Source: Escherichia phage vB_EcoS_HdK1. Taken from it: 64,000 nucleotides of DNA. Numbering within the stretch: position 1 is the stretch's first letter; the number at the start of each line of letters is the position of its first letter. The position numbers were made by a program, and so were the translations under genes. The stretch lies in sequence record MK373794.1; one strand, given 5' to 3'. The notes under the pieces were generated by a model. It did not search any database. It was not told the origin of the DNA and saw only the letters and a list, made by a program, of their open reading frames with translations. This document shows, piece by piece, positions 1 to 64,000 of the stretch.

Positions 1-339
1 ATAAAGGGGTCTCGTGGGGTCGTCAGTAGACAACTCAAAAATAAAAAATCTTTATAAAATTTATATAAATACACACATATACACATTTTTACCTTATTTT
101 TCATGCACTTACCTCCTTTCATTTCGTATATTAAGCGACAATATACGAGCAATATAAGAAATATTTGTTGCGCAACAACGAGGCGCTCACAAGCTCGCGC
201 ACGCGCATAATGCGGGCACGCGGTCTAACACAAAAGAAAATTGAATTGCAAGCGATTTTTGCTGAGGTAACTCTCGAAGCGAAAGCGATTTGCGAGTTTG
301 AAATTTTGTAGCCCGAAAACGATTCTATTTTATGGTATA

Positions 340-660
340 AATGTCGGATTTTTCGGTGAAAGGTGGCTTTTCGGTGAGGTTGGGTGGCTGGGATCGGTGT
401 AACTGGTAGCCCATAAAGCGAAAATAGCCGCGAAAACGGGGCACGCAGCGCGATTAAATGGTTGGATCAGTGTAAGGGTGGCGGTGAGGGGGCGAAAATG
501 CCGCAAAATCGCTTACAGGGATGCAGGGAGTGGGCCGCTGTAAGGGCGTATAAGGCGATTAAATTGGAGTCTATGGTAATGTATGGAAGATGGATTTAGG
601 CTCTTAGAGCGCGAATGGTGGAGCTATGGGTGAGGAATATGTGGTCAGCAGGGTAGCGCG
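340..660. repeat. Non-coding G-rich region with reiterated CGGTGAGG / TGTAAGGG-like short motifs
   Basis: No ORF of 60 aa or more; repeated motifs such as cggtgaaagg, cggtgagg, cagtgtaaggg, ggcggtgaggggg, gctgtaaggg, gggtgagg read directly in the sequence. Confidence 0.5.
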
Positions 661-675
661 GGAGGTTATGCAGGT

Positions 676-714
676 ACAAAAACGAAAGCGCCCCGTTGGA
701 CTTCAACAGGGCGC
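676..714 (-). terminator. Rho-independent terminator candidate downstream of the leftward small-gene operon
   Basis: GC stem gcgccc / gggcgc (688..693 and 709..714) with 15-nt loop; on the minus strand it is followed by a T-rich tract (revcomp of 676..687). Lies just past the stop of CDS 738..986. Confidence 0.4.
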
Positions 715-737
715 GGATTGTATAATGCTTTTAGAAG

Positions 738-986
738 TTATTTACTAGTTAATAATACCGCCCAGGTATTATCTGGAAGCGTACCAACTCCGAGTATCTT
801 AAACTGAAGCGACTTGTTCTGCATGTTGTAGTTGTCGAGTAACTCCTGGGCAGCCGCAGCAGCGTTCGCTTCACCGTTCAGGTTGTAGTCGTTTGCAGTT
901 ATTGCACACATACCGAGACCGACCGCTTTGAAGCGCATACCTTTGGATTGAGTCGGTGCAAGTGCTTTAACATGGATAGCGTTCAT
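738..986 (-). CDS. hypothetical protein (82 aa)
   Basis: ORF with GGAGA Shine-Dalgarno-like sequence upstream of the ATG; balanced composition. Confidence 0.6.
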   Translation of the reverse strand: MNAIHVKALAPTQSKGMRFKAVGLGMCAITANDYNLNGEANAAAAAQELLDNYNMQNKSLQFKILGVGTLPDNTWAVLLTSK

Positions 987-1015
987 ATTATTTATCTCCG
1001 TTACAATTTGAAAGG

Positions 1016-1279
1016 TTAGCAGTTTTTTAACAGGTTGATGAAGCCCACCAGCGTGGACGCTGTTGCAACCAGGCGGCCCATAGTATGCAGTTCCGCGTAA
1101 ACTTTACCGTCGTCAAACACAGTTAAATAAACGTTAAGACCATTGCAACGGACGCGATATTTGCGCGAGTTATTACCAAAAGTTTCCAGCTCTGCGGTGA
1201 TAGTCGCAAGATTAGCTATACGTTTGCCGATAATGCGGCGAGTGATAGTGGACTGGTTTAATACTGTAGACATAATCAT
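1016..1279 (-). CDS. hypothetical small protein (87 aa); paralog of 2588..2893
   Basis: ORF with AGAGGAA RBS; N-terminal motif QSTITRRIIGKR shared with the protein at 2588..2893 (QSQITKRIIGKR). Confidence 0.6.
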   Translation of the reverse strand: MIMSTVLNQSTITRRIIGKRIANLATITAELETFGNNSRKYRVRCNGLNVYLTVFDDGKVYAELHTMGRLVATASTLVGFINLLKNC

Positions 1280-1341
1280 TTCCTCTGTTAACTATGCGAA
1301 GTGCATATTATTGCCCACTGTTACTATGGGCAATGTATATG

Positions 1342-1506
1342 TCACTCAGCGGACACATATTCTAACGCTTCTGATAGTGTAGCGAAGTAACCATCGCTCA
1401 CCAGATTAATAGCGTACTCAAGTTGATCGCGGGTCAGGTTGCGAAACTTGTTACGGATGTGATAGCAACGACCGCGATAAATAACCTGGAAATAGTTGCG
1501 TTCCAT
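1342..1506 (-). CDS. hypothetical small protein (54 aa; ORF-track version 1342..1662 is probably over-extended)
   Basis: Internal ATG at 1506 is preceded by AAGGGGA RBS; the longer ORF overlaps the well-formed gene 1517..1762 in another frame. Confidence 0.4.
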   Translation of the reverse strand: MERNYFQVIYRGRCYHIRNKFRNLTRDQLEYAINLVSDGYFATLSEALEYVSAE

Positions 1507-1516
1507 AATTATCCCC

Positions 1517-1762
1517 TTATGCAACGATGAACGCGTAACCGCTTTGATCCGGGAGTTCACCACCGGAAAGAATTTCAAACTCAACGCCCGCTTTATCGCT
1601 GAACTTTTTGATAAGCTCTTCCGCTGCGGCGCGGTGGTTGCCGTAAACACCAAGATCGTCACGCCACGTGATAGTCAAGGAGCCGTTCCAACCTGTTGCT
1701 TTTACGCGCGGGTTACGGGTGGCAGTCGGGTTCATGAATTTTGTGATGATAGCTTGAGCCAT
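1517..1762 (-). CDS. hypothetical protein (81 aa)
   Basis: ORF with GGAG RBS upstream; protein-like composition. Confidence 0.55.
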   Translation of the reverse strand: MAQAIITKFMNPTATRNPRVKATGWNGSLTITWRDDLGVYGNHRAAAEELIKKFSDKAGVEFEILSGGELPDQSGYAFIVA

Positions 1763-1767
1763 GATAA

Positions 1768-1953
1768 TTACTCCGGTAAAATTACAGTGACGTTAATATT
1801 TGCAAGGCGAGCGCACTCGCGGAAACCTTTTACATAAGCATCCATTTCGTCATAGGATGCGAAAGTTGCGTCCGGGACTGGTCCGTTGTTAATATTCACG
1901 CAATATTCGTGTTCGTCCAGGTCAACCCAACAAGTCAGAACGATAGTTTCCAT
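1768..1953 (-). CDS. hypothetical small protein (61 aa; start at internal ATG)
   Basis: ATG at 1953 preceded by GGAGGG RBS; ORF-track version extends to 1986. Confidence 0.45.
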   Translation of the reverse strand: METIVLTCWVDLDEHEYCVNINNGPVPDATFASYDEMDAYVKGFRECARLANINVTVILPE

Positions 1954-2031
1954 ATTATTTGCCCTCCGTATAATACAGACCCGCAACTATTGGAGCTCCG
2001 AAAACTAAGAAAGCTAATAAATAGAACATAA

Positions 2032-2511
2032 TTAGTTACCCCCTTTATTGTTGAGCCCGTTGAATTTACGCCATGCGTAGAATTCAATCGTTGCATTATT
2101 AATATTCCAACCATTAGCTTTCGCAAGGTCACGGACGTTACCAATAGTTGGCACACCATCAGGCAACATATTATCCAGGGCATTCCAAACGTCTGCGCAT
2201 TTACCTTTAATCGGGCGACGAACCCCGTTGCGCGTTTCGCTGCGCGTTTTGCTCTTGGCTGGAGCGACCGGAGCTTGTTGTGTGGTCACTTCCACGACAG
2301 TCGCTTTATCAGCTTCCACCAGATCGCTAGCTGCCTTATTAACCGCGCTTTCGCTGTACCAGTAGCGACCACCGTCTTCGTGCGGTTCCTGGTGAATAAA
2401 GCTATTTGCTGTCGCAGTGTCCACATCCAGAACCTTTTTTAAGGCACGGCGAGCGTTAGACATAGTGGCGAAGAAGCGAGCGTCTTTTGCTACGCGAGTG
2501 ATAGTAACCAT
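2032..2511 (-). CDS. hypothetical protein (159 aa)
   Basis: ATG at 2511 with GGAGA RBS; ORF-track version 2032..2526. Confidence 0.55.
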   Translation of the reverse strand: MVTITRVAKDARFFATMSNARRALKKVLDVDTATANSFIHQEPHEDGGRYWYSESAVNKAASDLVEADKATVVEVTTQQAPVAPAKSKTRSETRNGVRRPIKGKCADVWNALDNMLPDGVPTIGNVRDLAKANGWNINNATIEFYAWRKFNGLNNKGGN

Positions 2512-2587
2512 TGTGAATATCTCCATGTTGTTCTAGCGGATTGCTAGTGGGAGCCCACTGTTACAATGGGCAACCATTAGCACGCTA

Positions 2588-2893
2588 TTATTGTTGAATA
2601 GCTTTATCTATCATTGCGATGAAGCAGAACACAGACCAAAGGCTATTCGCTTGGCATACTGCGCGACCATACATTACGCTATAAGAGCTGACAGTACCGT
2701 CCTCGTTAATGCGAATATATAACGCGGTGCTGGAATACTTTTCGTTGCCCGGGAGCATTACTAAATACTCGTCGAAACCCCAATCCCCGTCGACTTTTTC
2801 CGCAGTAAGGCCCAGTTGGTGCAGTCGCTTGCCAATAATGCGCTTAGTAATCTGAGATTGGGACATGGAACGCGGTAAGTAGATAATGGACAT
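2588..2893 (-). CDS. hypothetical small protein (101 aa); paralog of 1016..1279
   Basis: ATG at 2893 with AGGGAGA RBS; shares the ITKRIIGKR N-terminal motif with 1016..1279; ORF-track version extends to 3010. Confidence 0.55.
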   Translation of the reverse strand: MSIIYLPRSMSQSQITKRIIGKRLHQLGLTAEKVDGDWGFDEYLVMLPGNEKYSSTALYIRINEDGTVSSYSVMYGRAVCQANSLWSVFCFIAMIDKAIQQ

Positions 2894-2968
2894 AATGCAA
2901 TCTCCCTTCGGGTGAGGCGGGCGCGGAACCCGTGTCCCGCTTAACAACCCCCTTAACCCTACACAGTT

Positions 2969-2997
2969 ATAGTATGACAACGGGGTATCAGATGCAA
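2969..2997 (-). promoter_or_regulatory. sigma70-like promoter candidate driving leftward transcription of 2893..738
   Basis: Minus strand reads TTGCAT-N17-TACTAT (revcomp of 2992..2997 and 2969..2974). Confidence 0.25.
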
Positions 2998-3073
2998 CTA
3001 TTATCTGCAATATTTTAGAACTTTTTTAGTTGTGTTTCATAATAATAACATCCGGGACTATGCGGTAGATGGT

Positions 3074-3147
3074 GTGCCGGAAATACCAGGTAGCGCGAGC
3101 GTGCCGAAAATACCAGGTAACAGCACGCGCCGAACATACCAGGTAGC
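3074..3147. repeat. Three 21-bp direct repeats (iteron-like), consensus GyGCCGrAmATACCAGGTArC
   Basis: gtgccggaaataccaggtagc (3074..3094), gtgccgaaaataccaggtaac (3101..3121), gcgccgaacataccaggtagc (3127..3147); spacing 27 and 26 bp; non-coding region. Confidence 0.6.
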
Positions 3148-3535
3148 ACATACATAGACAGCACATAGTGGGCAGGTGGATAGTAACAGATGCAATTATA
3201 CTGGACGGTACAGTATAGTCATGTAATAGATAGCATACTAATTAAATAAAAAATAATAACGCGTGTAACAATAAACAACGTTACAGTAGAGCGCGCAACA
3301 GTCACATGACGTAACAATCACCTCACTGACGATCACGGGACGTTATAGTAACGCCGCGGGGCGGCTCTTAGATCTCTGCCAAGGATTCTAGACGTAAACA
3401 TTGAATCGCCACTAGACTATTTACATCACAACCTCACTCCTCACACAATAATACATAGAATTTAAATCCGTATATAAATACTCGAGATAGTATCTACATA
3501 TTCGAGGATGAGTGCTCAATCATTGTAGGTTATAA

Positions 3536-44139: not shown

Positions 44140-44337
44140 CTAACGGGAAAGAACTACAGAACTTTCGCTACAGCATAGAATTCCATACTCATGAAGACGT
44201 TGAAAGTTTGGATGTTTGGCTAATACCTGCATCCGATCGTAATCAATTAAGACGTACATATTAATCCTTCCACCATTCGGGCCCACAATACATTCCACGT
44301 AGTTCTTCACGCATGTAATTTTCAAACTCGTCTTCAA
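44140..44337 (-). CDS. hypothetical protein, N-terminal fragment of frameshifted gene 43535..44337
   Basis: MYVLIDYDRMQVLAKHPNFQRLHEYGILCCSE then stop; continuation in another frame. Confidence 0.4.
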   Translation of the reverse strand: MKTSLKITCVKNYVECIVGPNGGRINMYVLIDYDRMQVLAKHPNFQRLHEYGILCCSESSVVLSR

Positions 44338-44500
44338 TATTGATTACTTGACTTTCGTGAAAAACTGCTACACCATGAATAAATCGTTTAGCTCTTTCTC
44401 CTTTAATTACACCGTAACCTAACGCCTCCCACTCTTTAAAAGTCTTCCATTCACCATCTTCCGGTGAATAGTCGTCACTTCTAAACGTCATCTTTGCCAT
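44261..44500 (-). CDS. hypothetical small protein (79 aa)
   Basis: ATG at 44500 with GAGG RBS, just downstream of the helicase stop (ORF-track version extends to 44668). Confidence 0.45.
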   Translation of the reverse strand: MAKMTFRSDDYSPEDGEWKTFKEWEALGYGVIKGERAKRFIHGVAVFHESQVINIEDEFENYMREELRGMYCGPEWWKD

Positions 44501-44507
44501 ATAAGCC

Positions 44508-46511
44508 TCAAAACGGAATGTCGTCATCAAAGTCTGGTGGTAGTTCTTTACCGTTACCAGTAAGAATAGGTTGATTAGACGTAGAATGCAATACTGTCGT
44601 ACGGGAATCAGTCTGCTCATCTTCATCAAACTTATTCGTATAACTTCCACCAAACTGGGACAGACCATTCATTGCTGCAATTTGTACAACCGGACGTTCG
44701 TTTGTTGCTTCTTTCTTACCGAATTCACTACCATCATAGCAACTATTCAACACTTCGGGGAACTTACCCTTCAAGTTGACATATATGTGCGTCGGTACAC
44801 GAAGCTGGCTGACCACATTGAGTGCTTCGTCAATGTTAGCTGGGATTGCCAAGCTGCAATGCTCGCGCCACCAGTTACGCGCTTTCTTACCTGCAAAGCC
44901 GGTATGGAACAGGCAAATATATTGTTGAATAGTTTGTGAGCCACAAAGATAGTCCACGCGAAGTGTCGGTGGCTTAGAACGGTCACCCCTGTTCTCGTGG
45001 CGGTAGTAACTCACCATATCAACTTTCAATACCTCAGTGACTGGTAAATCATTCTTGATAATAGCTTTCGTACTAGCACTCGCCATTAGTTTCTTCTCAA
45101 AAGTAAACTCATGACCGCAATAACCAGCACGGCACGCTTTATTATTCGTAATGGTATAACCTAATCCTTGCAGATAGAGTATTTCTTCATGTGACATGCT
45201 ACTTGTGTCGAATGGTTTTAACCCACCACAGAAGCGAACTGACGCATGGTTCCATGTTTTACATATTGGGCATTCCTTAACAGGTGCAGCGGATTTTCCT
45301 TTCTGCCCTGGACGCTTAGGAATAACAGGGTCATTAATAGGCCCAAGGCGCCTTGTGTTACCTGCATAATCCAATACAAGACAGTTCTGTTTATGCGAAG
45401 CGGAGATAGCTTGCAAACGACCCTCTGTTGTGGTCAAATCAAAACCATCTGCATAATCAGGTCGTGTACCACGTCCAAGCATCTGAACCCACAAACGGGA
45501 AGATTGAGATGGTCGCATACCAATTATCAAGTCAAGTCCTGGATGGTCAAAGCCTGTCGTTAATACGTTGTTGTTTGCTATTGCCTGTAAACGACCAGCT
45601 TTAAAATCAATAAGATACTGGTCACGCAAGGCTTTCGGTGTATCACCAGTTACAACTTCACAACTAATACCGCGCTCGTTGAGGTAGTCCTTGACATCTT
45701 TTGCATGGTCTACACCAGCACAAAAGACAAGCCAACTCATTCTATTCTCTTCTTCCGCAATACTAATCGCATCATCTAATAAATGGCGAGTTACATCAGG
45801 ATCGTTTACAACCTTTTGAAGCTCACTTTCAATGAACTCACCGCCTCGAGTATGAACACCACTTACATCATACTCTTTCTTTGTTTTACGTGGTACTAAC
45901 GGAACAAGATAACCCTCATCAATGAACCAGTTGAAGCACTCTACGGTACATGCGTTAAATACGATTTCATCAAATAAAGCATTAGGCGCATAATCATCTT
46001 TGATAATAGAACCAAAACCAAGACGCCAACTCGTAGCAGTAAGACCGATAATCTTTAGATATGGATTCTTTTCACGAATGTGCGCAAAGAACTTCTGGTA
46101 ACTTGTTTGTTGATTTGGGCTAATAAGGTCACATTCGTCAACTATAATAATATCAACGTCCTCAAAGTATTTAGCTTGTTTTGCAACAGACTGAATACCC
46201 GCGAACGTTATCATTGCGTTCTTATCTTTGCGGCCCATACCAGCACTATAAATACCAGTCGGTGCTTCAGGCCACAACTTCTTAAATTTATCGTGGTTCT
46301 GGTCTATCAATTCTTTTACGTGAGTAATTACCATCATGCGGGTACTACCCCAATTATCGTGAATTGTCTTTAATAGACCAGCAATTACAAGGGACTTACC
46401 AGTCCCTGTAGGCAACAAGATAACAGGATTTCCTGACTTTTCACCATGCTTGATGAAATAGCGCAATGTACTGTTTACAGCTTCTTGCTGATAATCACGT
46501 AGTTTGAACAT
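44508..46511 (-). CDS. superfamily 2 DNA helicase (DExD-box) with zinc-finger and SSB-like acidic C-terminal tip
   Basis: Motif I LLPTGTGKS; motif II IIVDECD; motif VI QMLGRGTR; CPICKTW...FCGG zinc finger; C-terminus ...PPDFDDDIPF. Confidence 0.8.
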   Translation of the reverse strand: MFKLRDYQQEAVNSTLRYFIKHGEKSGNPVILLPTGTGKSLVIAGLLKTIHDNWGSTRMMVITHVKELIDQNHDKFKKLWPEAPTGIYSAGMGRKDKNAMITFAGIQSVAKQAKYFEDVDIIIVDECDLISPNQQTSYQKFFAHIREKNPYLKIIGLTATSWRLGFGSIIKDDYAPNALFDEIVFNACTVECFNWFIDEGYLVPLVPRKTKKEYDVSGVHTRGGEFIESELQKVVNDPDVTRHLLDDAISIAEEENRMSWLVFCAGVDHAKDVKDYLNERGISCEVVTGDTPKALRDQYLIDFKAGRLQAIANNNVLTTGFDHPGLDLIIGMRPSQSSRLWVQMLGRGTRPDYADGFDLTTTEGRLQAISASHKQNCLVLDYAGNTRRLGPINDPVIPKRPGQKGKSAAPVKECPICKTWNHASVRFCGGLKPFDTSSMSHEEILYLQGLGYTITNNKACRAGYCGHEFTFEKKLMASASTKAIIKNDLPVTEVLKVDMVSYYRHENRGDRSKPPTLRVDYLCGSQTIQQYICLFHTGFAGKKARNWWREHCSLAIPANIDEALNVVSQLRVPTHIYVNLKGKFPEVLNSCYDGSEFGKKEATNERPVVQIAAMNGLSQFGGSYTNKFDEDEQTDSRTTVLHSTSNQPILTGNGKELPPDFDDDIPF

Positions 46512-47462
46512 TTACTCACCGTAATAATCTGCTGCTTCGTATTGACCACATGCTGCCATTTGATCTTCCTTCGTTAACACACCTTCGGTTCCATCGGTGA
46601 TGTATGCAGTAGCAGAAGCTACTTTGATTGCGCATCTCCAGGTTCCATCTTCAAGCGGATAAGAGTGCTTACAGGTGCGGCAGTTAACTTCAGGCATTTT
46701 GTTGTTATGGCACACCGCTTTGTGGTCACACCATTTGCATTTATAGTAAGATTTACTTTCATTGATCTTAGGTGGTGGGCATTCCGCCAGTGCAATTACA
46801 AATCCACGGTCTTTGTAGCGTTCTGCTGTTTCTTTATCAAACGGTACAAGCTCTGCCCAAATCTCGTCCGTGTTCTTATTAACTGCAATATAAAGAGCGG
46901 CTGGGAGTCCATAATACAACATGTATTCCTGCATCTGAACATAGTGCTCCCATTTGGATTCCATCACACCATTAACGACAAGTTTCTTGAACGAATCGTT
47001 ATTGTGCGTTTTCATCTCCGTTAAGATTGGTGTAGAAGGTTGTGGCATGTCAGGACAACCAATGACAATACCATCTATCGCGGAACCAAAGTGCCCGTTG
47101 AGATAGCTGACTCTATACTGGCTGCCATTTTCGTCTTGTTGGATGACTTGCATACCGGCGGTAAGTAATAAGGCCACGAAGCGACCTTCTTCAAGATGCC
47201 CGCGATTGAATAGACGTAAGGTCTTACCGTTAAAGTGTGGTTTTGTTGCCCATCGCCATCCGTAGAAGATTGCTCTGCTACACTCCTGCCCGATAAGACT
47301 AATCCCAAGATGCGAACGGAATCCGCCATCCCCCTCTCGATATGCGTCTTCAATATGCGGTAATACTTTTCCGAGCCATACTCTGTAAGCGGATCCTTGA
47401 TCTCGTTCAATACAGTCATTGAATAACTCCATTGTCTTAGTAGCAGGATAAAAATGTGGCAT
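46512..47462 (-). CDS. RecB/Cas4-like PD-(D/E)xK exonuclease with C-terminal Cys cluster (putative)
   Basis: D...EMK nuclease-like motif (AIDGIV...ILTEMKTH); four-Cys cluster CKWCDHKAVCHNNKMPEVNCRTC. Confidence 0.45.
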   Translation of the reverse strand: MPHFYPATKTMELFNDCIERDQGSAYRVWLGKVLPHIEDAYREGDGGFRSHLGISLIGQECSRAIFYGWRWATKPHFNGKTLRLFNRGHLEEGRFVALLLTAGMQVIQQDENGSQYRVSYLNGHFGSAIDGIVIGCPDMPQPSTPILTEMKTHNNDSFKKLVVNGVMESKWEHYVQMQEYMLYYGLPAALYIAVNKNTDEIWAELVPFDKETAERYKDRGFVIALAECPPPKINESKSYYKCKWCDHKAVCHNNKMPEVNCRTCKHSYPLEDGTWRCAIKVASATAYITDGTEGVLTKEDQMAACGQYEAADYYGE

Positions 47463-47524
47463 ATCATAATCCTATATAGAAAAATAAAGCTCCCGGAGGA
47501 GCTTTATTATAACATGATTTTTAA

Positions 47525-48445
47525 TTACTGTGCAGCGTCATCGCCTTCGGTGGAACGTTTCCACGGTGGAGTCTTGGTCTGAGCTGCTTTAGCGATATCG
47601 TCCTGGACTTCAGGTTCTGCATGGTTAGCAGTACCAGTGTTCTGAGCTTGAGTTTGCGGTTGCTCCGCTCCAGGCTGTACCTGCTGAGTTGCCCAGTTAG
47701 GCTGCTGTGTGGCTTGTTGCTGCGGCTGCTGCGCACCAGTAGCCCACGGTTGAGATTGTGCCGCGCTGTTAAAATCAACTGTTCCAGACTGCTGCTGTTG
47801 CTGTACCGGCTGCTGCGGCTGTTGTTGCTGCTGCGGCTGCTGGAACCCCTGAGTCTGAGGTTGTTGCTGCTGTTGCTGCGGCTGCTGCCCAAATGCGCCC
47901 GGGAAACCCTGCTGCGGTTGCTGCTGTTGTTGCTGAGCACCACCGAACGCACCGCCACCAAATGCTGGGGATTGTGCTGCCGCTGCCGGAGTTGATTTAG
48001 GCAGGTTAGCCATATCCGCCTTAGTTGCGTATACAACACCTTCCATATTATCAATTGCTTGATAAATCTGAGGTTCGTTGTTTGGCTCATAGCCGGGTTG
48101 CTGACGAACTTTCACTTTCAGGTTAAACGGGATACCGTGCAGTTGTTCAGTATCGTTCCAGACTGGAACTTTAACAGCACGAGACAGCTCTGCCAGTTCT
48201 TCCATTGCAATCTGTACAGCGACAGGGTTCGCGTTCTTGACGTTGTAACCGCCAAACATTACACGACCAGCAAAATCACCCTGCATAATCTTAAACTGAA
48301 GATTCAGACGCGCACCGCCTGGAGTTTTAGTCGGTTTGATTTCAGAGTTTACAATCTGAACAACATACCAACCAGCGGGCATCAAGCTGTTGTGTTGACG
48401 CTCTGCGTGTTGTCCAGCGTTAAATTGCATTCCTAAACCGGCCAT
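47525..48445 (-). CDS. single-stranded DNA-binding protein-like, with Gln/Pro-rich low-complexity tail (putative)
   Basis: About 130-aa N-terminal domain followed by a Q/G/P-rich linker; next to the Sak4-like ATPase gene; lacks the canonical acidic tip. Confidence 0.35.
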   Translation of the reverse strand: MAGLGMQFNAGQHAERQHNSLMPAGWYVVQIVNSEIKPTKTPGGARLNLQFKIMQGDFAGRVMFGGYNVKNANPVAVQIAMEELAELSRAVKVPVWNDTEQLHGIPFNLKVKVRQQPGYEPNNEPQIYQAIDNMEGVVYATKADMANLPKSTPAAAAQSPAFGGGAFGGAQQQQQQPQQGFPGAFGQQPQQQQQQPQTQGFQQPQQQQQPQQPVQQQQQSGTVDFNSAAQSQPWATGAQQPQQQATQQPNWATQQVQPGAEQPQTQAQNTGTANHAEPEVQDDIAKAAQTKTPPWKRSTEGDDAAQ

Positions 48446-48466: not shown

Positions 48467-49195
48467 TTAATGATTGCACCGAGATGTGGATATTCCATCT
48501 GTTCTAACGAACGAACCAGAACGATCTTTACATACATTTGACAGATCTGGTCTTGTCAGCAGATAACGAAAATCTGCTTGAGTATTTTGGTCTTTACCAA
48601 CACTAATCTTGAACACTTCGTCAAAAAAGTATGGTAATTCTGGACCTAATTTTGCACCAGGCATAGAAGGACCATAAGACGTAATACCTGTTAACTCGTC
48701 CTTATTACGGGACATTTTAGCTGCCATGTATACGTTAAGTCCAGGGATATCTCGAAAAGCACGAACCAACGTTTGCATCTTCTCAATGAGATCCCCATAA
48801 GCCTGACGCGGATCCTTTACAGTACGCTTCGCATTGTTAAGGCACTTTTCAGCAATCTCAGTAAGTGAATCCAGCGCAAGAGATTGAAAGCGCGGTAAAC
48901 CATCTTCACCTACAGGATTGTTTGCAGGATTAGTTGCCCAAACATAAGCCTGCTCCACATCCTGGATATTTTCAACCGTGATGGTTGGAATATCGTAACA
49001 GATATCTGGTCTGTTTTCACCAAACACACGAGCAATGTTATTCGGTGTTAAAGACAGAAGCCCAGACTCTGCAGAAATCAGCAACGGTCTTGGAAGAGTT
49101 GCTGTAAGCATGGTCTTACCCATACCGGATTCACCATACACAAGCATCTTGACACCAGTGTCCAAAACTGCCTGCGCGGTAGTTGTAAATTGCAT
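48467..49195 (-). CDS. Sak4-like RecA-family ATPase (recombination)
   Basis: Walker A VYGESGMGKT near the N-terminus; size about 240 aa; adjacent to the SSB-like gene. Confidence 0.6.
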   Translation of the reverse strand: MQFTTTAQAVLDTGVKMLVYGESGMGKTMLTATLPRPLLISAESGLLSLTPNNIARVFGENRPDICYDIPTITVENIQDVEQAYVWATNPANNPVGEDGLPRFQSLALDSLTEIAEKCLNNAKRTVKDPRQAYGDLIEKMQTLVRAFRDIPGLNVYMAAKMSRNKDELTGITSYGPSMPGAKLGPELPYFFDEVFKISVGKDQNTQADFRYLLTRPDLSNVCKDRSGSFVRTDGISTSRCNH

Positions 49196-49259: not shown

Positions 49260-50204
49260 TTATTCACTAATATCTGTTGGATCACGGAAACTTTGATGCG
49301 TAGGAATACGCAATTTGTCTTTCATACCGTGAGCAAAGAATTTCCATTTAGAAATCTTCCCAATGAATTCATCAGGATGCTCAAAATAATATTTACGTTC
49401 TTCGTGCGTAAGACGACCAGCACCTACACGCATCTCTTGCCCGACTTCAATAAGATCTTCAAGGCCTTCTGGTACTGTAAGCACACGTACATCAAATGAG
49501 CCGACCATACCATTTGGAACCATATTAGCTTGATGGCTTGAACGATAAGTCTGCCCTAACTCATTAATCTGGGCTTCATTCCCATTGGTGCAACCTTCGA
49601 TAATACGAATGATCTCACCTTCACCATCAGTGAAACGCTTAATGCGGAGATAACCGCCTTCACGCTGCGTACTACGACCCCATTTATATTTCGCTTCAAG
49701 GTCACGAATAATAACACCTTCGTATCCCATATCGAGCCAAATATTTTCCCACTCCAAGAGTTCTTGTTCGTTGTTGACCACATACAGTGGCACAAGTTTC
49801 ACGTCCATTAACTCACCGTTAGCGTGGCATTCGTCCACGTACTTCTTGAGCATGTCATAACGCTCTTTGTACGGTAGATGTGCAACATTCGGTTCGCATA
49901 AATCGAACACATGCCACGTCCAAACGTATTCAGCTTCGATTTTAGATGTTGCACTACTTGTCTTGCGACATAAATCAAAGTCTGTTTCGTCCCCAACGGC
50001 AAGCTCACCGTCCATACCATCATAGATGGGAGATCCAAATACCTTTGCGACCTGCTTATTTGCAAAAGATTTAAGACTTCGTCCAACAAGCTCCCCAAAC
50101 GGTTTCATCCCACGAACGCCGTCAATTTTAGGCATGATACCTACAGGGTATTTCTGTTTAGCTGAATCCCAATCTGTTGCTAGATAAGGTTTAAATCGAG
50201 CCAT
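49260..50204 (-). CDS. ATP-dependent DNA ligase
   Basis: Adenylation motif MPKIDGVRG (KxDGxR); size 314 aa. Confidence 0.75.
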   Translation of the reverse strand: MARFKPYLATDWDSAKQKYPVGIMPKIDGVRGMKPFGELVGRSLKSFANKQVAKVFGSPIYDGMDGELAVGDETDFDLCRKTSSATSKIEAEYVWTWHVFDLCEPNVAHLPYKERYDMLKKYVDECHANGELMDVKLVPLYVVNNEQELLEWENIWLDMGYEGVIIRDLEAKYKWGRSTQREGGYLRIKRFTDGEGEIIRIIEGCTNGNEAQINELGQTYRSSHQANMVPNGMVGSFDVRVLTVPEGLEDLIEVGQEMRVGAGRLTHEERKYYFEHPDEFIGKISKWKFFAHGMKDKLRIPTHQSFRDPTDISE

Positions 50205-50781
50205 TGAAATTTACCTTTGTGTGTTCCCGAACAAGAAGTTTTAACTTCCTAACCCAAGATTGCTGTTTCTCAATGTTAACTTTCTTCGGTTTAGGAATAA
50301 CGGATTTTGCTGTATCTACTTTTAATTTATCGTAGTCCATGCGTCGTCTACCTGTTCGCATGTGCATACCCGCAATTTCATCGCACTTGTCTTGTGCAAG
50401 ACTACGGGGATCCATCCTACCCGAATGACCTTTAACATGACGGAATTGGAAACTAAGCCTATTCTCGACAATAGTATCCATGAACCATTTATATACTTGC
50501 TGTTCTTCTCCTCTCGGTGGACGTTTACCTTCGAACATATGGATTGCTGCTTTGCAATCCGTCTGGAATAATATAACGTCGTTTGTGTAGATAAGTCCAG
50601 CTTCTATGCCGTGATATAAACCGTTAGCTACTGCAATACATTCAACTACGGTATTATCTGTGTGACCATGTGCAGGGCCACCAAAAGCCTTCTTACCCCG
50701 TTTGGAGGCTACCCAAATCCCATAGCCTCCACATTTAGTACGGTGACAAAACGACGCATCCGATATTATCGTGATGAGCAT
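50191..50781 (-). CDS. ribonuclease H
   Basis: RNase H-like catalytic pattern: SDASF, VVECIA, FQTDCK, HVKGHSG, DKCDE. Confidence 0.7.
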   Translation of the reverse strand: MLITIISDASFCHRTKCGGYGIWVASKRGKKAFGGPAHGHTDNTVVECIAVANGLYHGIEAGLIYTNDVILFQTDCKAAIHMFEGKRPPRGEEQQVYKWFMDTIVENRLSFQFRHVKGHSGRMDPRSLAQDKCDEIAGMHMRTGRRRMDYDKLKVDTAKSVIPKPKKVNIEKQQSWVRKLKLLVREHTKVNFNGSI

Positions 50782-60692: not shown

Positions 60693-63600
60693 ATAAAGGG
60701 GTCTCGTGGGGTCGTCAGTAGACAACTCAAAAATAAAAAATCTTTATAAAATTTATATAAATACACACATATACACATTTTTACCTTATTTTTCATGCAC
60801 TTACCTCCTTTCATTTCGTATATTAAGCGACAATATACGAGCAATATAAGAAATATTTGTTGCGCAACAACGAGGCGCTCACAAGCTCGCGCACGCGCAT
60901 AATGCGGGCACGCGGTCTAACACAAAAGAAAATTGAATTGCAAGCGATTTTTGCTGAGGTAACTCTCGAAGCGAAAGCGATTTGCGAGTTTGAAATTTTG
61001 TAGCCCGAAAACGATTCTATTTTATGGTATAAATGTCGGATTTTTCGGTGAAAGGTGGCTTTTCGGTGAGGTTGGGTGGCTGGGATCGGTGTAACTGGTA
61101 GCCCATAAAGCGAAAATAGCCGCGAAAACGGGGCACGCAGCGCGATTAAATGGTTGGATCAGTGTAAGGGTGGCGGTGAGGGGGCGAAAATGCCGCAAAA
61201 TCGCTTACAGGGATGCAGGGAGTGGGCCGCTGTAAGGGCGTATAAGGCGATTAAATTGGAGTCTATGGTAATGTATGGAAGATGGATTTAGGCTCTTAGA
61301 GCGCGAATGGTGGAGCTATGGGTGAGGAATATGTGGTCAGCAGGGTAGCGCGGGAGGTTATGCAGGTACAAAAACGAAAGCGCCCCGTTGGACTTCAACA
61401 GGGCGCGGATTGTATAATGCTTTTAGAAGTTATTTACTAGTTAATAATACCGCCCAGGTATTATCTGGAAGCGTACCAACTCCGAGTATCTTAAACTGAA
61501 GCGACTTGTTCTGCATGTTGTAGTTGTCGAGTAACTCCTGGGCAGCCGCAGCAGCGTTCGCTTCACCGTTCAGGTTGTAGTCGTTTGCAGTTATTGCACA
61601 CATACCGAGACCGACCGCTTTGAAGCGCATACCTTTGGATTGAGTCGGTGCAAGTGCTTTAACATGGATAGCGTTCATATTATTTATCTCCGTTACAATT
61701 TGAAAGGTTAGCAGTTTTTTAACAGGTTGATGAAGCCCACCAGCGTGGACGCTGTTGCAACCAGGCGGCCCATAGTATGCAGTTCCGCGTAAACTTTACC
61801 GTCGTCAAACACAGTTAAATAAACGTTAAGACCATTGCAACGGACGCGATATTTGCGCGAGTTATTACCAAAAGTTTCCAGCTCTGCGGTGATAGTCGCA
61901 AGATTAGCTATACGTTTGCCGATAATGCGGCGAGTGATAGTGGACTGGTTTAATACTGTAGACATAATCATTTCCTCTGTTAACTATGCGAAGTGCATAT
62001 TATTGCCCACTGTTACTATGGGCAATGTATATGTCACTCAGCGGACACATATTCTAACGCTTCTGATAGTGTAGCGAAGTAACCATCGCTCACCAGATTA
62101 ATAGCGTACTCAAGTTGATCGCGGGTCAGGTTGCGAAACTTGTTACGGATGTGATAGCAACGACCGCGATAAATAACCTGGAAATAGTTGCGTTCCATAA
62201 TTATCCCCTTATGCAACGATGAACGCGTAACCGCTTTGATCCGGGAGTTCACCACCGGAAAGAATTTCAAACTCAACGCCCGCTTTATCGCTGAACTTTT
62301 TGATAAGCTCTTCCGCTGCGGCGCGGTGGTTGCCGTAAACACCAAGATCGTCACGCCACGTGATAGTCAAGGAGCCGTTCCAACCTGTTGCTTTTACGCG
62401 CGGGTTACGGGTGGCAGTCGGGTTCATGAATTTTGTGATGATAGCTTGAGCCATGATAATTACTCCGGTAAAATTACAGTGACGTTAATATTTGCAAGGC
62501 GAGCGCACTCGCGGAAACCTTTTACATAAGCATCCATTTCGTCATAGGATGCGAAAGTTGCGTCCGGGACTGGTCCGTTGTTAATATTCACGCAATATTC
62601 GTGTTCGTCCAGGTCAACCCAACAAGTCAGAACGATAGTTTCCATATTATTTGCCCTCCGTATAATACAGACCCGCAACTATTGGAGCTCCGAAAACTAA
62701 GAAAGCTAATAAATAGAACATAATTAGTTACCCCCTTTATTGTTGAGCCCGTTGAATTTACGCCATGCGTAGAATTCAATCGTTGCATTATTAATATTCC
62801 AACCATTAGCTTTCGCAAGGTCACGGACGTTACCAATAGTTGGCACACCATCAGGCAACATATTATCCAGGGCATTCCAAACGTCTGCGCATTTACCTTT
62901 AATCGGGCGACGAACCCCGTTGCGCGTTTCGCTGCGCGTTTTGCTCTTGGCTGGAGCGACCGGAGCTTGTTGTGTGGTCACTTCCACGACAGTCGCTTTA
63001 TCAGCTTCCACCAGATCGCTAGCTGCCTTATTAACCGCGCTTTCGCTGTACCAGTAGCGACCACCGTCTTCGTGCGGTTCCTGGTGAATAAAGCTATTTG
63101 CTGTCGCAGTGTCCACATCCAGAACCTTTTTTAAGGCACGGCGAGCGTTAGACATAGTGGCGAAGAAGCGAGCGTCTTTTGCTACGCGAGTGATAGTAAC
63201 CATTGTGAATATCTCCATGTTGTTCTAGCGGATTGCTAGTGGGAGCCCACTGTTACAATGGGCAACCATTAGCACGCTATTATTGTTGAATAGCTTTATC
63301 TATCATTGCGATGAAGCAGAACACAGACCAAAGGCTATTCGCTTGGCATACTGCGCGACCATACATTACGCTATAAGAGCTGACAGTACCGTCCTCGTTA
63401 ATGCGAATATATAACGCGGTGCTGGAATACTTTTCGTTGCCCGGGAGCATTACTAAATACTCGTCGAAACCCCAATCCCCGTCGACTTTTTCCGCAGTAA
63501 GGCCCAGTTGGTGCAGTCGCTTGCCAATAATGCGCTTAGTAATCTGAGATTGGGACATGGAACGCGGTAAGTAGATAATGGACATAATGCAATCTCCCTT

Positions 63601-64000
63601 CGGGTGAGGCGGGCGCGGAACCCGTGTCCCGCTTAACAACCCCCTTAACCCTACACAGTTATAGTATGACAACGGGGTATCAGATGCAACTATTATCTGC
63701 AATATTTTAGAACTTTTTTAGTTGTGTTTCATAATAATAACATCCGGGACTATGCGGTAGATGGTGTGCCGGAAATACCAGGTAGCGCGAGCGTGCCGAA
63801 AATACCAGGTAACAGCACGCGCCGAACATACCAGGTAGCACATACATAGACAGCACATAGTGGGCAGGTGGATAGTAACAGATGCAATTATACTGGACGG
63901 TACAGTATAGTCATGTAATAGATAGCATACTAATTAAATAAAAAATAATAACGCGTGTAACAATAAACAACGTTACAGTAGAGCGCGCAACAGTCACATG
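60693..64000. repeat. Window-end exact duplication, copy 2 (identical to 1..3308); contains duplicate copies of the small minus-strand early genes
   Basis: Same as copy 1; all ORFs at 61430..63702 duplicate those at 738..3010. Not re-listed individually. Confidence 0.9.

Follow-up and report, generated by a model that had tools for sequence, protein, structure and literature searches.

The open reading frame (ORF) at positions 47525..48445 on the minus strand of a 64,000-nucleotide stretch of Escherichia phage vB_EcoS_HdK1 (sequence record MK373794.1; the whole stretch is called the window below) encodes a DUF669-family protein of SSB type (SSB, single-stranded DNA-binding protein) with a confidently predicted OB domain. 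The gene is intact. Its product lacks an acidic tip at the C-terminus, and this is no defect: most of the nearest relatives have no such tip either and carry the motif PPW or a variant of it near their ends, and the window SSB is ordinary for its family. The product most likely binds single-stranded DNA (ssDNA) as the SSB of the phage, and the PPW motif probably replaces the acidic tip and recruits the enzymes of a phage gene cassette.

The C-terminal tips of SSBs organise the enzymes of replication, repair, and recombination on ssDNA. In bacteria and many phages, an acidic tip that ends in phenylalanine counts as the general rule.

A DUF669 protein with an OB fold

Membership of the DUF669 family can be read from profile matches. 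The ORF matches Pfam DUF669 (PF05037) over amino acids 14-116 with 35.2 bits (cutoff 21, E 1.5e-8) and PHROG 6015, 'single strand DNA binding protein', with E 3.5e-98. When the ORF was scanned against Pfam at E <= 0.01, DUF669 was the sole match, and the canonical SSB family (PF00436) was not among the results. DUF669 proteins have been put forward as the SSBs of phages without known SSBs and as OB-fold proteins, and they have been linked to the SSB of phage N4 (Kazlauskas et al. 2016, PMC4889955).

An exhaustive HMMER search with residues 1-150 collected 5,437 representative clusters at E <= 1e-3, whereas a first word-index homology search had returned 7 matches. Searching the PDB by sequence gave no match to the window protein even at E 10, and the family profile found nothing useful there.

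The N-terminal domain was modelled with AlphaFold2 from 116 sequences. The model has a confidence score (pLDDT) of 93 and the topology b1-b2-b3-helix-b4-b5. Its best structural matches are ssDNA-binding OB proteins, and a BFVD search returns DUF669 models at E 1e-14. Together with the Pfam and PHROG matches, the model bears out the initial annotation, made from the sequence letters, which had called the protein SSB-like and proposed looking for an OB fold.

The closest structural match is PrgE from plasmid pCF10 (PDB 8s4s). The two proteins are 11% identical, with no relationship at the sequence level, and PrgE, with 144 amino acids, has neither the long linker nor the PPW tip of the window SSB. 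The N-terminal tail of PrgE touches the neighbouring subunit on ssDNA (PMC11137577). Judged from PrgE only, the N-terminal arm of the window SSB may take part in cooperative binding.

The window comes from a 9g-like phage of the genus Nonagvirus (Queuovirinae). Over the 6.4 kb surrounding the SSB gene, it is 94.5-97.6% identical to 17 phage records, HdSG1, BRET, 9g, and JenK1 among them. The Nonagvirus orthologues, including 9g gp13, are the same gene: they show 93-99.6% amino acid identity in tblastn, occupy the same place in the cassette, and share the C-terminus, differing from the window SSB in linker length and a few substitutions. RefSeq labels 9g gp13 'single strand DNA binding protein, DUF669 family member', an annotation that rests on homology.

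Another SSB was also looked for. A tblastn search of the whole window with E. coli SSB produced a single match, between the tail of the query and the tail of the helicase described below (E 0.002). The Pfam scan, which covered part of the window ORFs, gave no other SSB, and the RefSeq annotation of the homologous 9.3-kb region of 9g lists no further one.

The C-terminal tip in the window and in relatives

Beyond residue 150 the protein continues as a long tail. Residues 151-270 hold 49 Gln, 16 Ala, 14 Pro, and 12 Gly among 120, and the DNA of this linker consists of imperfect tandem arrays of the CTG/CAG type with periods of 3, 9, 12, and 18. In the full-length model, residues 151-306 have pLDDT values of 45-61 and are unstructured and undocked from the OB domain; the tail is predicted to be disordered.

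The protein ends in ...TKTPPWKRSTEGDDAAQ; its last 9 residues carry a net charge of -3, and its last 14 one of -1. DUF669 proteins have been described as having acidic C-terminal tails (PMC4889955), a trait that is not seen at the end of the window SSB (...GDDAAQ), which also has no terminal aromatic residue. An acidic tail is a descriptive feature of DUF669 proteins and does not enter into their Pfam definition. Nor does an ending like DDDIPF occur in any of the three minus-strand frames at the 3' end of the gene. The ORF, its composition, and the inspection of the three frames agree with the earlier description of a Gln/Pro-rich tail that ends in ...STEGDDAAQ and has no DDDIPF.

The layout can be compared with that of E. 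coli SSB, which likewise combines an OB domain, a disordered Gly/Gln/Pro-rich linker, and a short C-terminal motif with a Pro-aromatic core. The two proteins differ in that their OB domains belong to different families, their linkers are dominated by Gly in E. coli SSB and by Gln and Ala in the window SSB, and the E. coli protein has DDDIPF with a free Phe carboxylate where the window SSB has PPW followed by 11 residues.

It had been considered that a further frame error might have altered this C-terminus. Evidence on this point comes from a comparison of 14 distinct Nonagvirus alleles, including contigs from IMG/VR. The C-terminus is common to all 14 bar three substitutions, which lie within the last 5 residues, so the features found there are not due to chance. 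Eight Nonagvirus genomes have the same SSB C-terminus, with FritzHoffmann off at two residues. The linker varies between 312 and 381 nucleotides in the 14 alleles, and every difference is a multiple of 3. Because the linker DNA is built of CTG/CAG-type arrays with periods of 3-18, slippage leaves insertions and deletions in frame. Within the last 39 codons (stop codon included), 9 variable codons show synonymous changes only and 3 change the amino acid. Since the insertions and deletions are in frame and the changes in the tail mostly synonymous, the reading frame through the tail is under purifying selection.

The alleles and the inspection of all three frames rule out a frame error at the 3' end of the SSB gene. 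One fact could be taken in favour of an artefact, namely that the neighbouring Sak4-like gene in the window does carry a real frameshift. Set against the agreement of the 14 alleles, the multiples of 3, the ratio of synonymous to changing codons, and the absence of an acidic tip from the other two frames, it leaves hardly any room for a frameshift or truncation that hides a true protein with a canonical acidic tip.

To see how related proteins end, C-termini were examined in the best 150 of the 5,437 representatives (clusters at 50% identity). These proteins are 117-336 amino acids long and, two closer ones excepted, 35-47% identical in the OB domain. A P(x)W motif lies within the last 15 residues in 137 of the 150, and 94 have exactly PPW; an acidic stretch closed by Phe ends 5. 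Over 15,107 tail residues, 284 of 369 tail tryptophans stand in a PW or PxW context. Read by position, the tip is S/G, A, T/V, P (0.80), P (0.85), W (1.00), A/Q/M, Q/R/K, and then the end, and the residues that follow the tip Trp include 83 basic and 31 acidic ones. In the 137 relatives with P(x)W, the last Trp is 0-11 residues from the end, usually 2-6, and what follows it tends to be neutral or basic. The tip Trp of the window SSB, 11 residues from the end, is at the maximum seen and is matched by 1 relative among the best 150.

Tails of relatives commonly hold 2-4 PW/PxW motifs, and the copy near the C-terminus is always the most conserved. The PPW-type tip is kept despite widely differing length and composition of the tail.

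Examples of the tip can be found in phages of Escherichia, Providencia, Pseudomonas, Moraxella, Salmonella, and Rhizobium. The closest relatives outside Nonagvirus end in PPWKMQAQE and PPWARQPQ. Among annotated phages, the ends are ...AVPPWQQ in Seurat, ...ATPPWHNPQ in Iggy, ...PAPWNQPAQQ in PSTCR4, and ...NKPWVRG in Mcat23; others are ...AAPWEE in brorfarstad, ...AAPWGAR in Yazdi-M, and ...PPPWAQQ in RHph_X3_2. A degenerate DNA pattern, which requires WY, NP, and QLHGIP and samples the closer part of the family, collected 51 IMG/VR loci, and every complete SSB among those listed ends in a P(x)W-type tip.

In a few relatives, both tip types occur in one tail: ...DDDTPFDNTQAPADEPPPWARQG, ...AAPWKGDAPVVADDESVPF, and ...KPPWLKEENAVEPAPPFNDDDVPF (L054:2696-3349, minus strand, and proteins P0128 and P0153). 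This suggests that PPW and acidic motifs are separate modules able to coexist.

Neither a PPW motif in an SSB nor a phage helicase tipped with DDDIPF was found described in the literature searched, the coverage of which is incomplete. The PPW tip of this SSB subfamily appears not to have been described previously.

The gene cassette and its RadD-like helicase

The SSB gene is part of a cassette that also encodes a Sak4-like ATPase, a Cas4-like exonuclease, and a RadD-like helicase, and that is found in the IMG/VR loci and in annotated phages. All 53 loci with sequence upstream of the DUF669 gene have a P-loop Sak4-like ATPase gene there as its direct neighbour (48 of these ATPases were recognised by a Walker-A scan, and 5 by phmmer or inspection). 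Of the 25 loci that extend 4.5 kb or more downstream, all hold the exonuclease gene there and 24 the helicase gene. The gap between the ATPase and SSB genes is usually 0-4 nucleotides in related loci. In the window, the ATPase ORF ends 21 nucleotides upstream of the SSB start; in other Nonagvirus genomes, the two abut or overlap. As far as gene order can tell, this arrangement supports the view that the cassette genes may form a functional unit.

The Sak4-like gene of the window has a 4-nucleotide tandem duplication (GTTC on the coding strand) within 48497-48506, which puts its last 20 codons out of frame. In DNA alignment, the duplication is absent from HdSG1, BRET, and SE1, and the deposited 9g genome has a 1-nucleotide deletion a few bases away. 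Either a real mutation or an error in sequencing could account for the frameshift.

The helicase encoded at 44508..46511 (minus strand) matches RadD in the PDB (6jde, E 9.5e-65 over amino acids 2-388) and in NCBIfam (E 2.7e-87, below the equivalog cutoff). It ends in ...GKELPPDFDDDIPF (PPDFDDDIPF) after a low-complexity tail of about 70 amino acids, and the canonical DDDIPF tip is thus where the initial annotation had placed it. The C-terminus of E. coli SSB is MDFDDDIPF (PMC10238739).

In about 11 of 27 distinct lineages, the cassette helicase closes with an SSB-like acidic tip. The helicase tips include QDDDIPF, MDDDVPF, EDDDVPF, FEDDIPF, LDDEIPF, ADDDIPF, PDYVPF, EEEYGF, DEAPW, and TEGYF, and a ligase gene is also present in most loci with an acidic-tipped helicase. 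Cassette helicases that have no tip stop right after a conserved ...YPEIMxYEY element. PPW-type SSBs adjoin helicases without an acidic tip in about 16 of the 27 lineages and tipped ones in the others. Because PPW-type SSBs occur beside both kinds of helicase, the helicase tip looks like an addition in some lineages and not a swap. The earlier suggestion that the tip function had moved to the helicase therefore holds in part: an acidic tip is indeed found there, but the SSB has a PPW tip of its own, and both kinds of helicase occur.

E. coli RadD binds the C-terminal tip of SSB through a pocket in motor domain 1, which consists of T16, L17, F20, L44, L113, and L147 together with R21, R49, and R145 (PMC10238739). 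The phage helicase is homologous to this SSB-tip client in its motor domains. In 30 aligned cassette helicases, the hydrophobic pocket positions stay hydrophobic and the equivalent of F20 never varies. There is no conservation at R21 and R49, and all helicases but one have Lys or Arg at R145. The phage helicase differs from RadD in that it lacks two of the three pocket arginines and carries an SSB-type terminal tip itself. Pocket residues show no clear difference between the tip-bearing and tip-less helicases among the 30, the sole trend being Glu-Glu at positions 21-22, which is common in those without a tip.

Just downstream of the helicase gene is an ORF of 79 amino acids (44261..44500, minus strand) with a weak match to the N-terminal domain of ArdC (E 3.7e-4, below the Pfam cutoff). 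The ArdC N-terminal domain binds ssDNA and acts in anti-restriction. The SE1 orthologue of this ORF is named 'ssDNA-binding domain-containing protein' in RefSeq.

Features of the SSB gene and its surroundings are collected in Table 1. The records of HdSG1 and SP8 annotate a terminator after the SSB gene at the place that matches the hairpin. The hairpin behind the SSB stop codon, with the overlapping promoter-like site, suggests that the SSB gene closes one transcription unit.

On the scale of the whole window, translated stretches repeat at an offset of 60,692 nucleotides (for example 112/60804, 366/61058, 621/61313, and 2367/63059), which pairs positions 1-3308 with 60693-64000. The repeats suggest that the window wraps around a genome of some 60.7 kb or else holds a long terminal repeat.

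Table 1. Features of the SSB gene, its product, and its neighbours (window positions)
Feature	Position	Strand	Basis or remark
DUF669-family SSB coding sequence, 306 aa, ATG start	47525..48445	-	ORF list, Pfam, PHROG; stop codon 47525-47527
N-terminal arm, aa 1-22	48380..48445	-	consensus MAxLNFDAxxVxP; M1 and F8 at least 90% conserved; pLDDT 77-81
OB-fold core, aa 23-131	48053..48379	-	b1 25-38, b2 45-53, b3 62-70, helix 74-90, b4 107-114, b5 122-129
Post-OB segment with short helix, aa 132-150	47996..48052	-	helix 142-147, pLDDT 84-89
Disordered Gln/Ala/Pro/Gly-rich linker, aa 151-269	47639..47995	-	composition; pLDDT 45-58; length varies between isolates
Internal Trp motif QPWAT, aa 232-236	47738..47752	-	sequence; largely conserved in 8 Nonagvirus genomes
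Internal Trp motif PNWAT, aa 249-253	47687..47701	-	sequence; Nonagvirus comparison
Conserved C-terminal segment, aa 270-306, TGTANHAEPEVQDDIAKAAQTKTPPWKRSTEGDDAAQ	47528..47638	-	Nonagvirus alleles
PPW tip motif, aa 293-295	47561..47569	-	family-wide C-terminal motif
Post-PPW extension of 11 residues, KRSTEGDDAAQ; lineage-specific, weakly acidic	47528..47560	-	
Sak4-like AAA_24 ATPase	48467..49195	-	Pfam AAA_24 E 6e-23; PHROG 124 'Sak4-like'
ATP-dependent ligase, co-oriented block	49260..50204	-	
RNase H, co-oriented block	50191..50781	-	
Terminator-like hairpin with T-run, directly 3' of the SSB stop codon	47483..47508	-	consensus scan
Promoter-like site overlapping the hairpin, upstream of the exonuclease gene	47534..47506	-	10/12 matches, TG before the -10 hexamer
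Cas4-domain (PD-(D/E)XK) exonuclease	46512..47462	-	PHROG 1990 E 8e-115
RadD-like superfamily 2 helicase	44508..46511	-	PDB and NCBIfam matches; second gene downstream of the SSB
Helicase tip DFDDDIPF	44511..44534	-	same as the final 8 residues of E. coli SSB

Possible roles of the PPW tip

In the favoured reading, the OB domain would coat ssDNA, and the flexible linker would present the PPW tip, possibly along with the two internal PW-like motifs. The tip would then bring the cassette enzymes of the phage itself onto the SSB-covered ssDNA. The leading candidate for the partner is the Sak4-like ATPase encoded immediately upstream, with the RadD-like helicase second. The phage SSB would in this way stay outside the client network of the host SSB, and a helicase with DFDDDIPF could make the connection to the host separately. 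Both the presumed role of PPW and its presumed partner follow earlier examples: client recruitment is the most economical reading because of the precedents of NDYPPF and Sak4 in HK620 and of RadD and the SSB tip.

The SSB of HK620 (HkaK) has been characterised by experiment and is placed in DUF669 by the authors of that work; it binds ssDNA and stimulates Sak4. Its last six residues, NDYPPF, are needed for loading Sak4 on SSB-coated ssDNA and for stimulating annealing (PMC5928155). Like the window SSB, it adjoins a Sak4-like ATPase and has a Pro-Pro-aromatic core at its C-terminus (YPPF as compared with PPW). Unlike the window SSB, it has the aromatic as its very last residue, has an acidic tail, and lacks a long Gln-rich linker; its gene has neither an exonuclease nor a helicase annotated next to it.

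Several points count against recruitment of a Sak4-like partner by PPW. The characterised SSBs of HK620 and N4 are too distant to align with the window SSB. For HK620, the comparison gives a BLAST E of 18 and an hhalign probability of 1.5%, and the protein has no Pfam DUF669 match; when the window and HK620 Sak4 proteins were compared directly, no usable similarity was found. In Nonagvirus, PPW stands 11 residues from the end, and therefore this tip may behave differently. The generalisation that DUF669 proteins have acidic tails fails for the window SSB and its nearest relatives. In the window, the duplication in the Sak4-like gene turns the conserved C-terminus ...LEQMEYPHLGAIINKIKGVQ into ...FVRTDGISTSRCNH. 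Finally, co-occurrence cannot separate the candidate readers of the tip, because ATPase, exonuclease, and helicase are nearly always present.

Other explanations may be considered. Recruitment by PPW might serve chiefly the RadD-like helicase or the Cas4-like exonuclease, both of which are nearly always encoded in the cassette. Among solved structures, the closest homologue of the helicase is E. coli RadD, which takes the SSB tip in a hydrophobic pocket; the hydrophobic residues are kept in the 30 helicases, with the F20 equivalent invariant, and the lack of conservation of R21 and R49, which hold the carboxylate, would suit an internal aromatic such as that of PPW. As the main client, however, either enzyme is a doubtful choice, since the sole direct experiment on the tip of a DUF669-linked SSB points to Sak4 and the gene right beside that of the SSB is the one for the ATPase, which in many cases overlaps or abuts the SSB start codon. 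In N4, moreover, a Sak4-like gene lies directly upstream of the SSB gene, and the annotation of the 14 kb inspected shows neither an exonuclease nor a helicase; HK620 likewise pairs Sak4 with its SSB.

A proposal that is about equally tentative is that the function of the acidic tip sits on the helicase, where DFDDDIPF would mimic host SSB and either link to host clients or compete for them. At the end of the low-complexity tail, the tip matches exactly the 8 residues that close E. coli SSB, and the similar tips in about 11 of the 27 lineages occur mostly with a ligase gene in the locus. A precedent exists in T7, where the gp4 helicase and the gp2.5 SSB both have acidic tails ending in Phe. 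Against this, the SSB has a conserved tip of its own, so that no transfer is needed, and about 16 of the 27 lineages pair a PPW-type SSB with a helicase lacking the acidic tip. A tip function on the helicase can be compatible with recruitment by PPW. Possible roles of the host-type tip are a link between the helicase and host SSB clients, competition with host SSB, and an action on the helicase itself.

The Trp motifs QPWAT, PNWAT, and PPW could also act within the SSB, in cooperativity, in autoinhibition of the OB domain, or in condensates formed through the Gln-rich linker. This agrees with the long low-complexity linker, with the 2-4 PW/PxW copies frequent in the tails of relatives, and with the polymerisation of PrgE, the closest structural match, on ssDNA through a terminal arm. 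It is nonetheless rather improbable, given that the monomer model leaves the tip undocked from the OB domain (pLDDT about 61 for residues 291-300) and that the C-terminal copy is always the best conserved, as expected of a tip that faces a partner.

Still less probable is a tail that works as in N4, where the C-terminus of the SSB activates late transcription through the beta' subunit of RNA polymerase; the window tail would then contact the host RNA polymerase in the same manner. The N4 SSB (gp45) has been linked to DUF669 by profile comparison (PMC4889955). It resembles the window SSB in being encoded downstream of a Sak4-like AAA_24 gene (gp44-gp45, L069:1521-3119) and in its non-acidic end of the aromatic-plus-basic kind, SLFGKK. 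The N4 SSB has no Pfam DUF669 match, however, and no detectable sequence relationship to the window SSB, and the PPW tip is spread over many phage types that are unrelated, among them prophage-like elements of Moraxella.

Homology had already placed a family of phage SSBs in annotation, and the PPW tip variant is what appears to be new here. Within a family of thousands of clusters, the nearest relatives of the window SSB keep a non-acidic PPW tip in a conserved four-gene cassette, and the RadD-like helicase of that cassette often carries the canonical tip instead. The published generalisation about acidic tails in DUF669 is thereby corrected, at least for this part of the family. A wider and more speculative picture, which the evidence makes conceivable but not probable, is that a large clade of phage SSBs swapped the acidic tip for PPW and so gained a private client network of Sak4, RadD, and Cas4 proteins, with some helicases tapping or blocking the clients of the host. 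If PPW is a client-recruitment motif, it would be a second type of tip for recognition between SSBs and their clients, and W295 and the tail around it would offer a handle on the loading of Sak4-type annealases and RadD-type motors.

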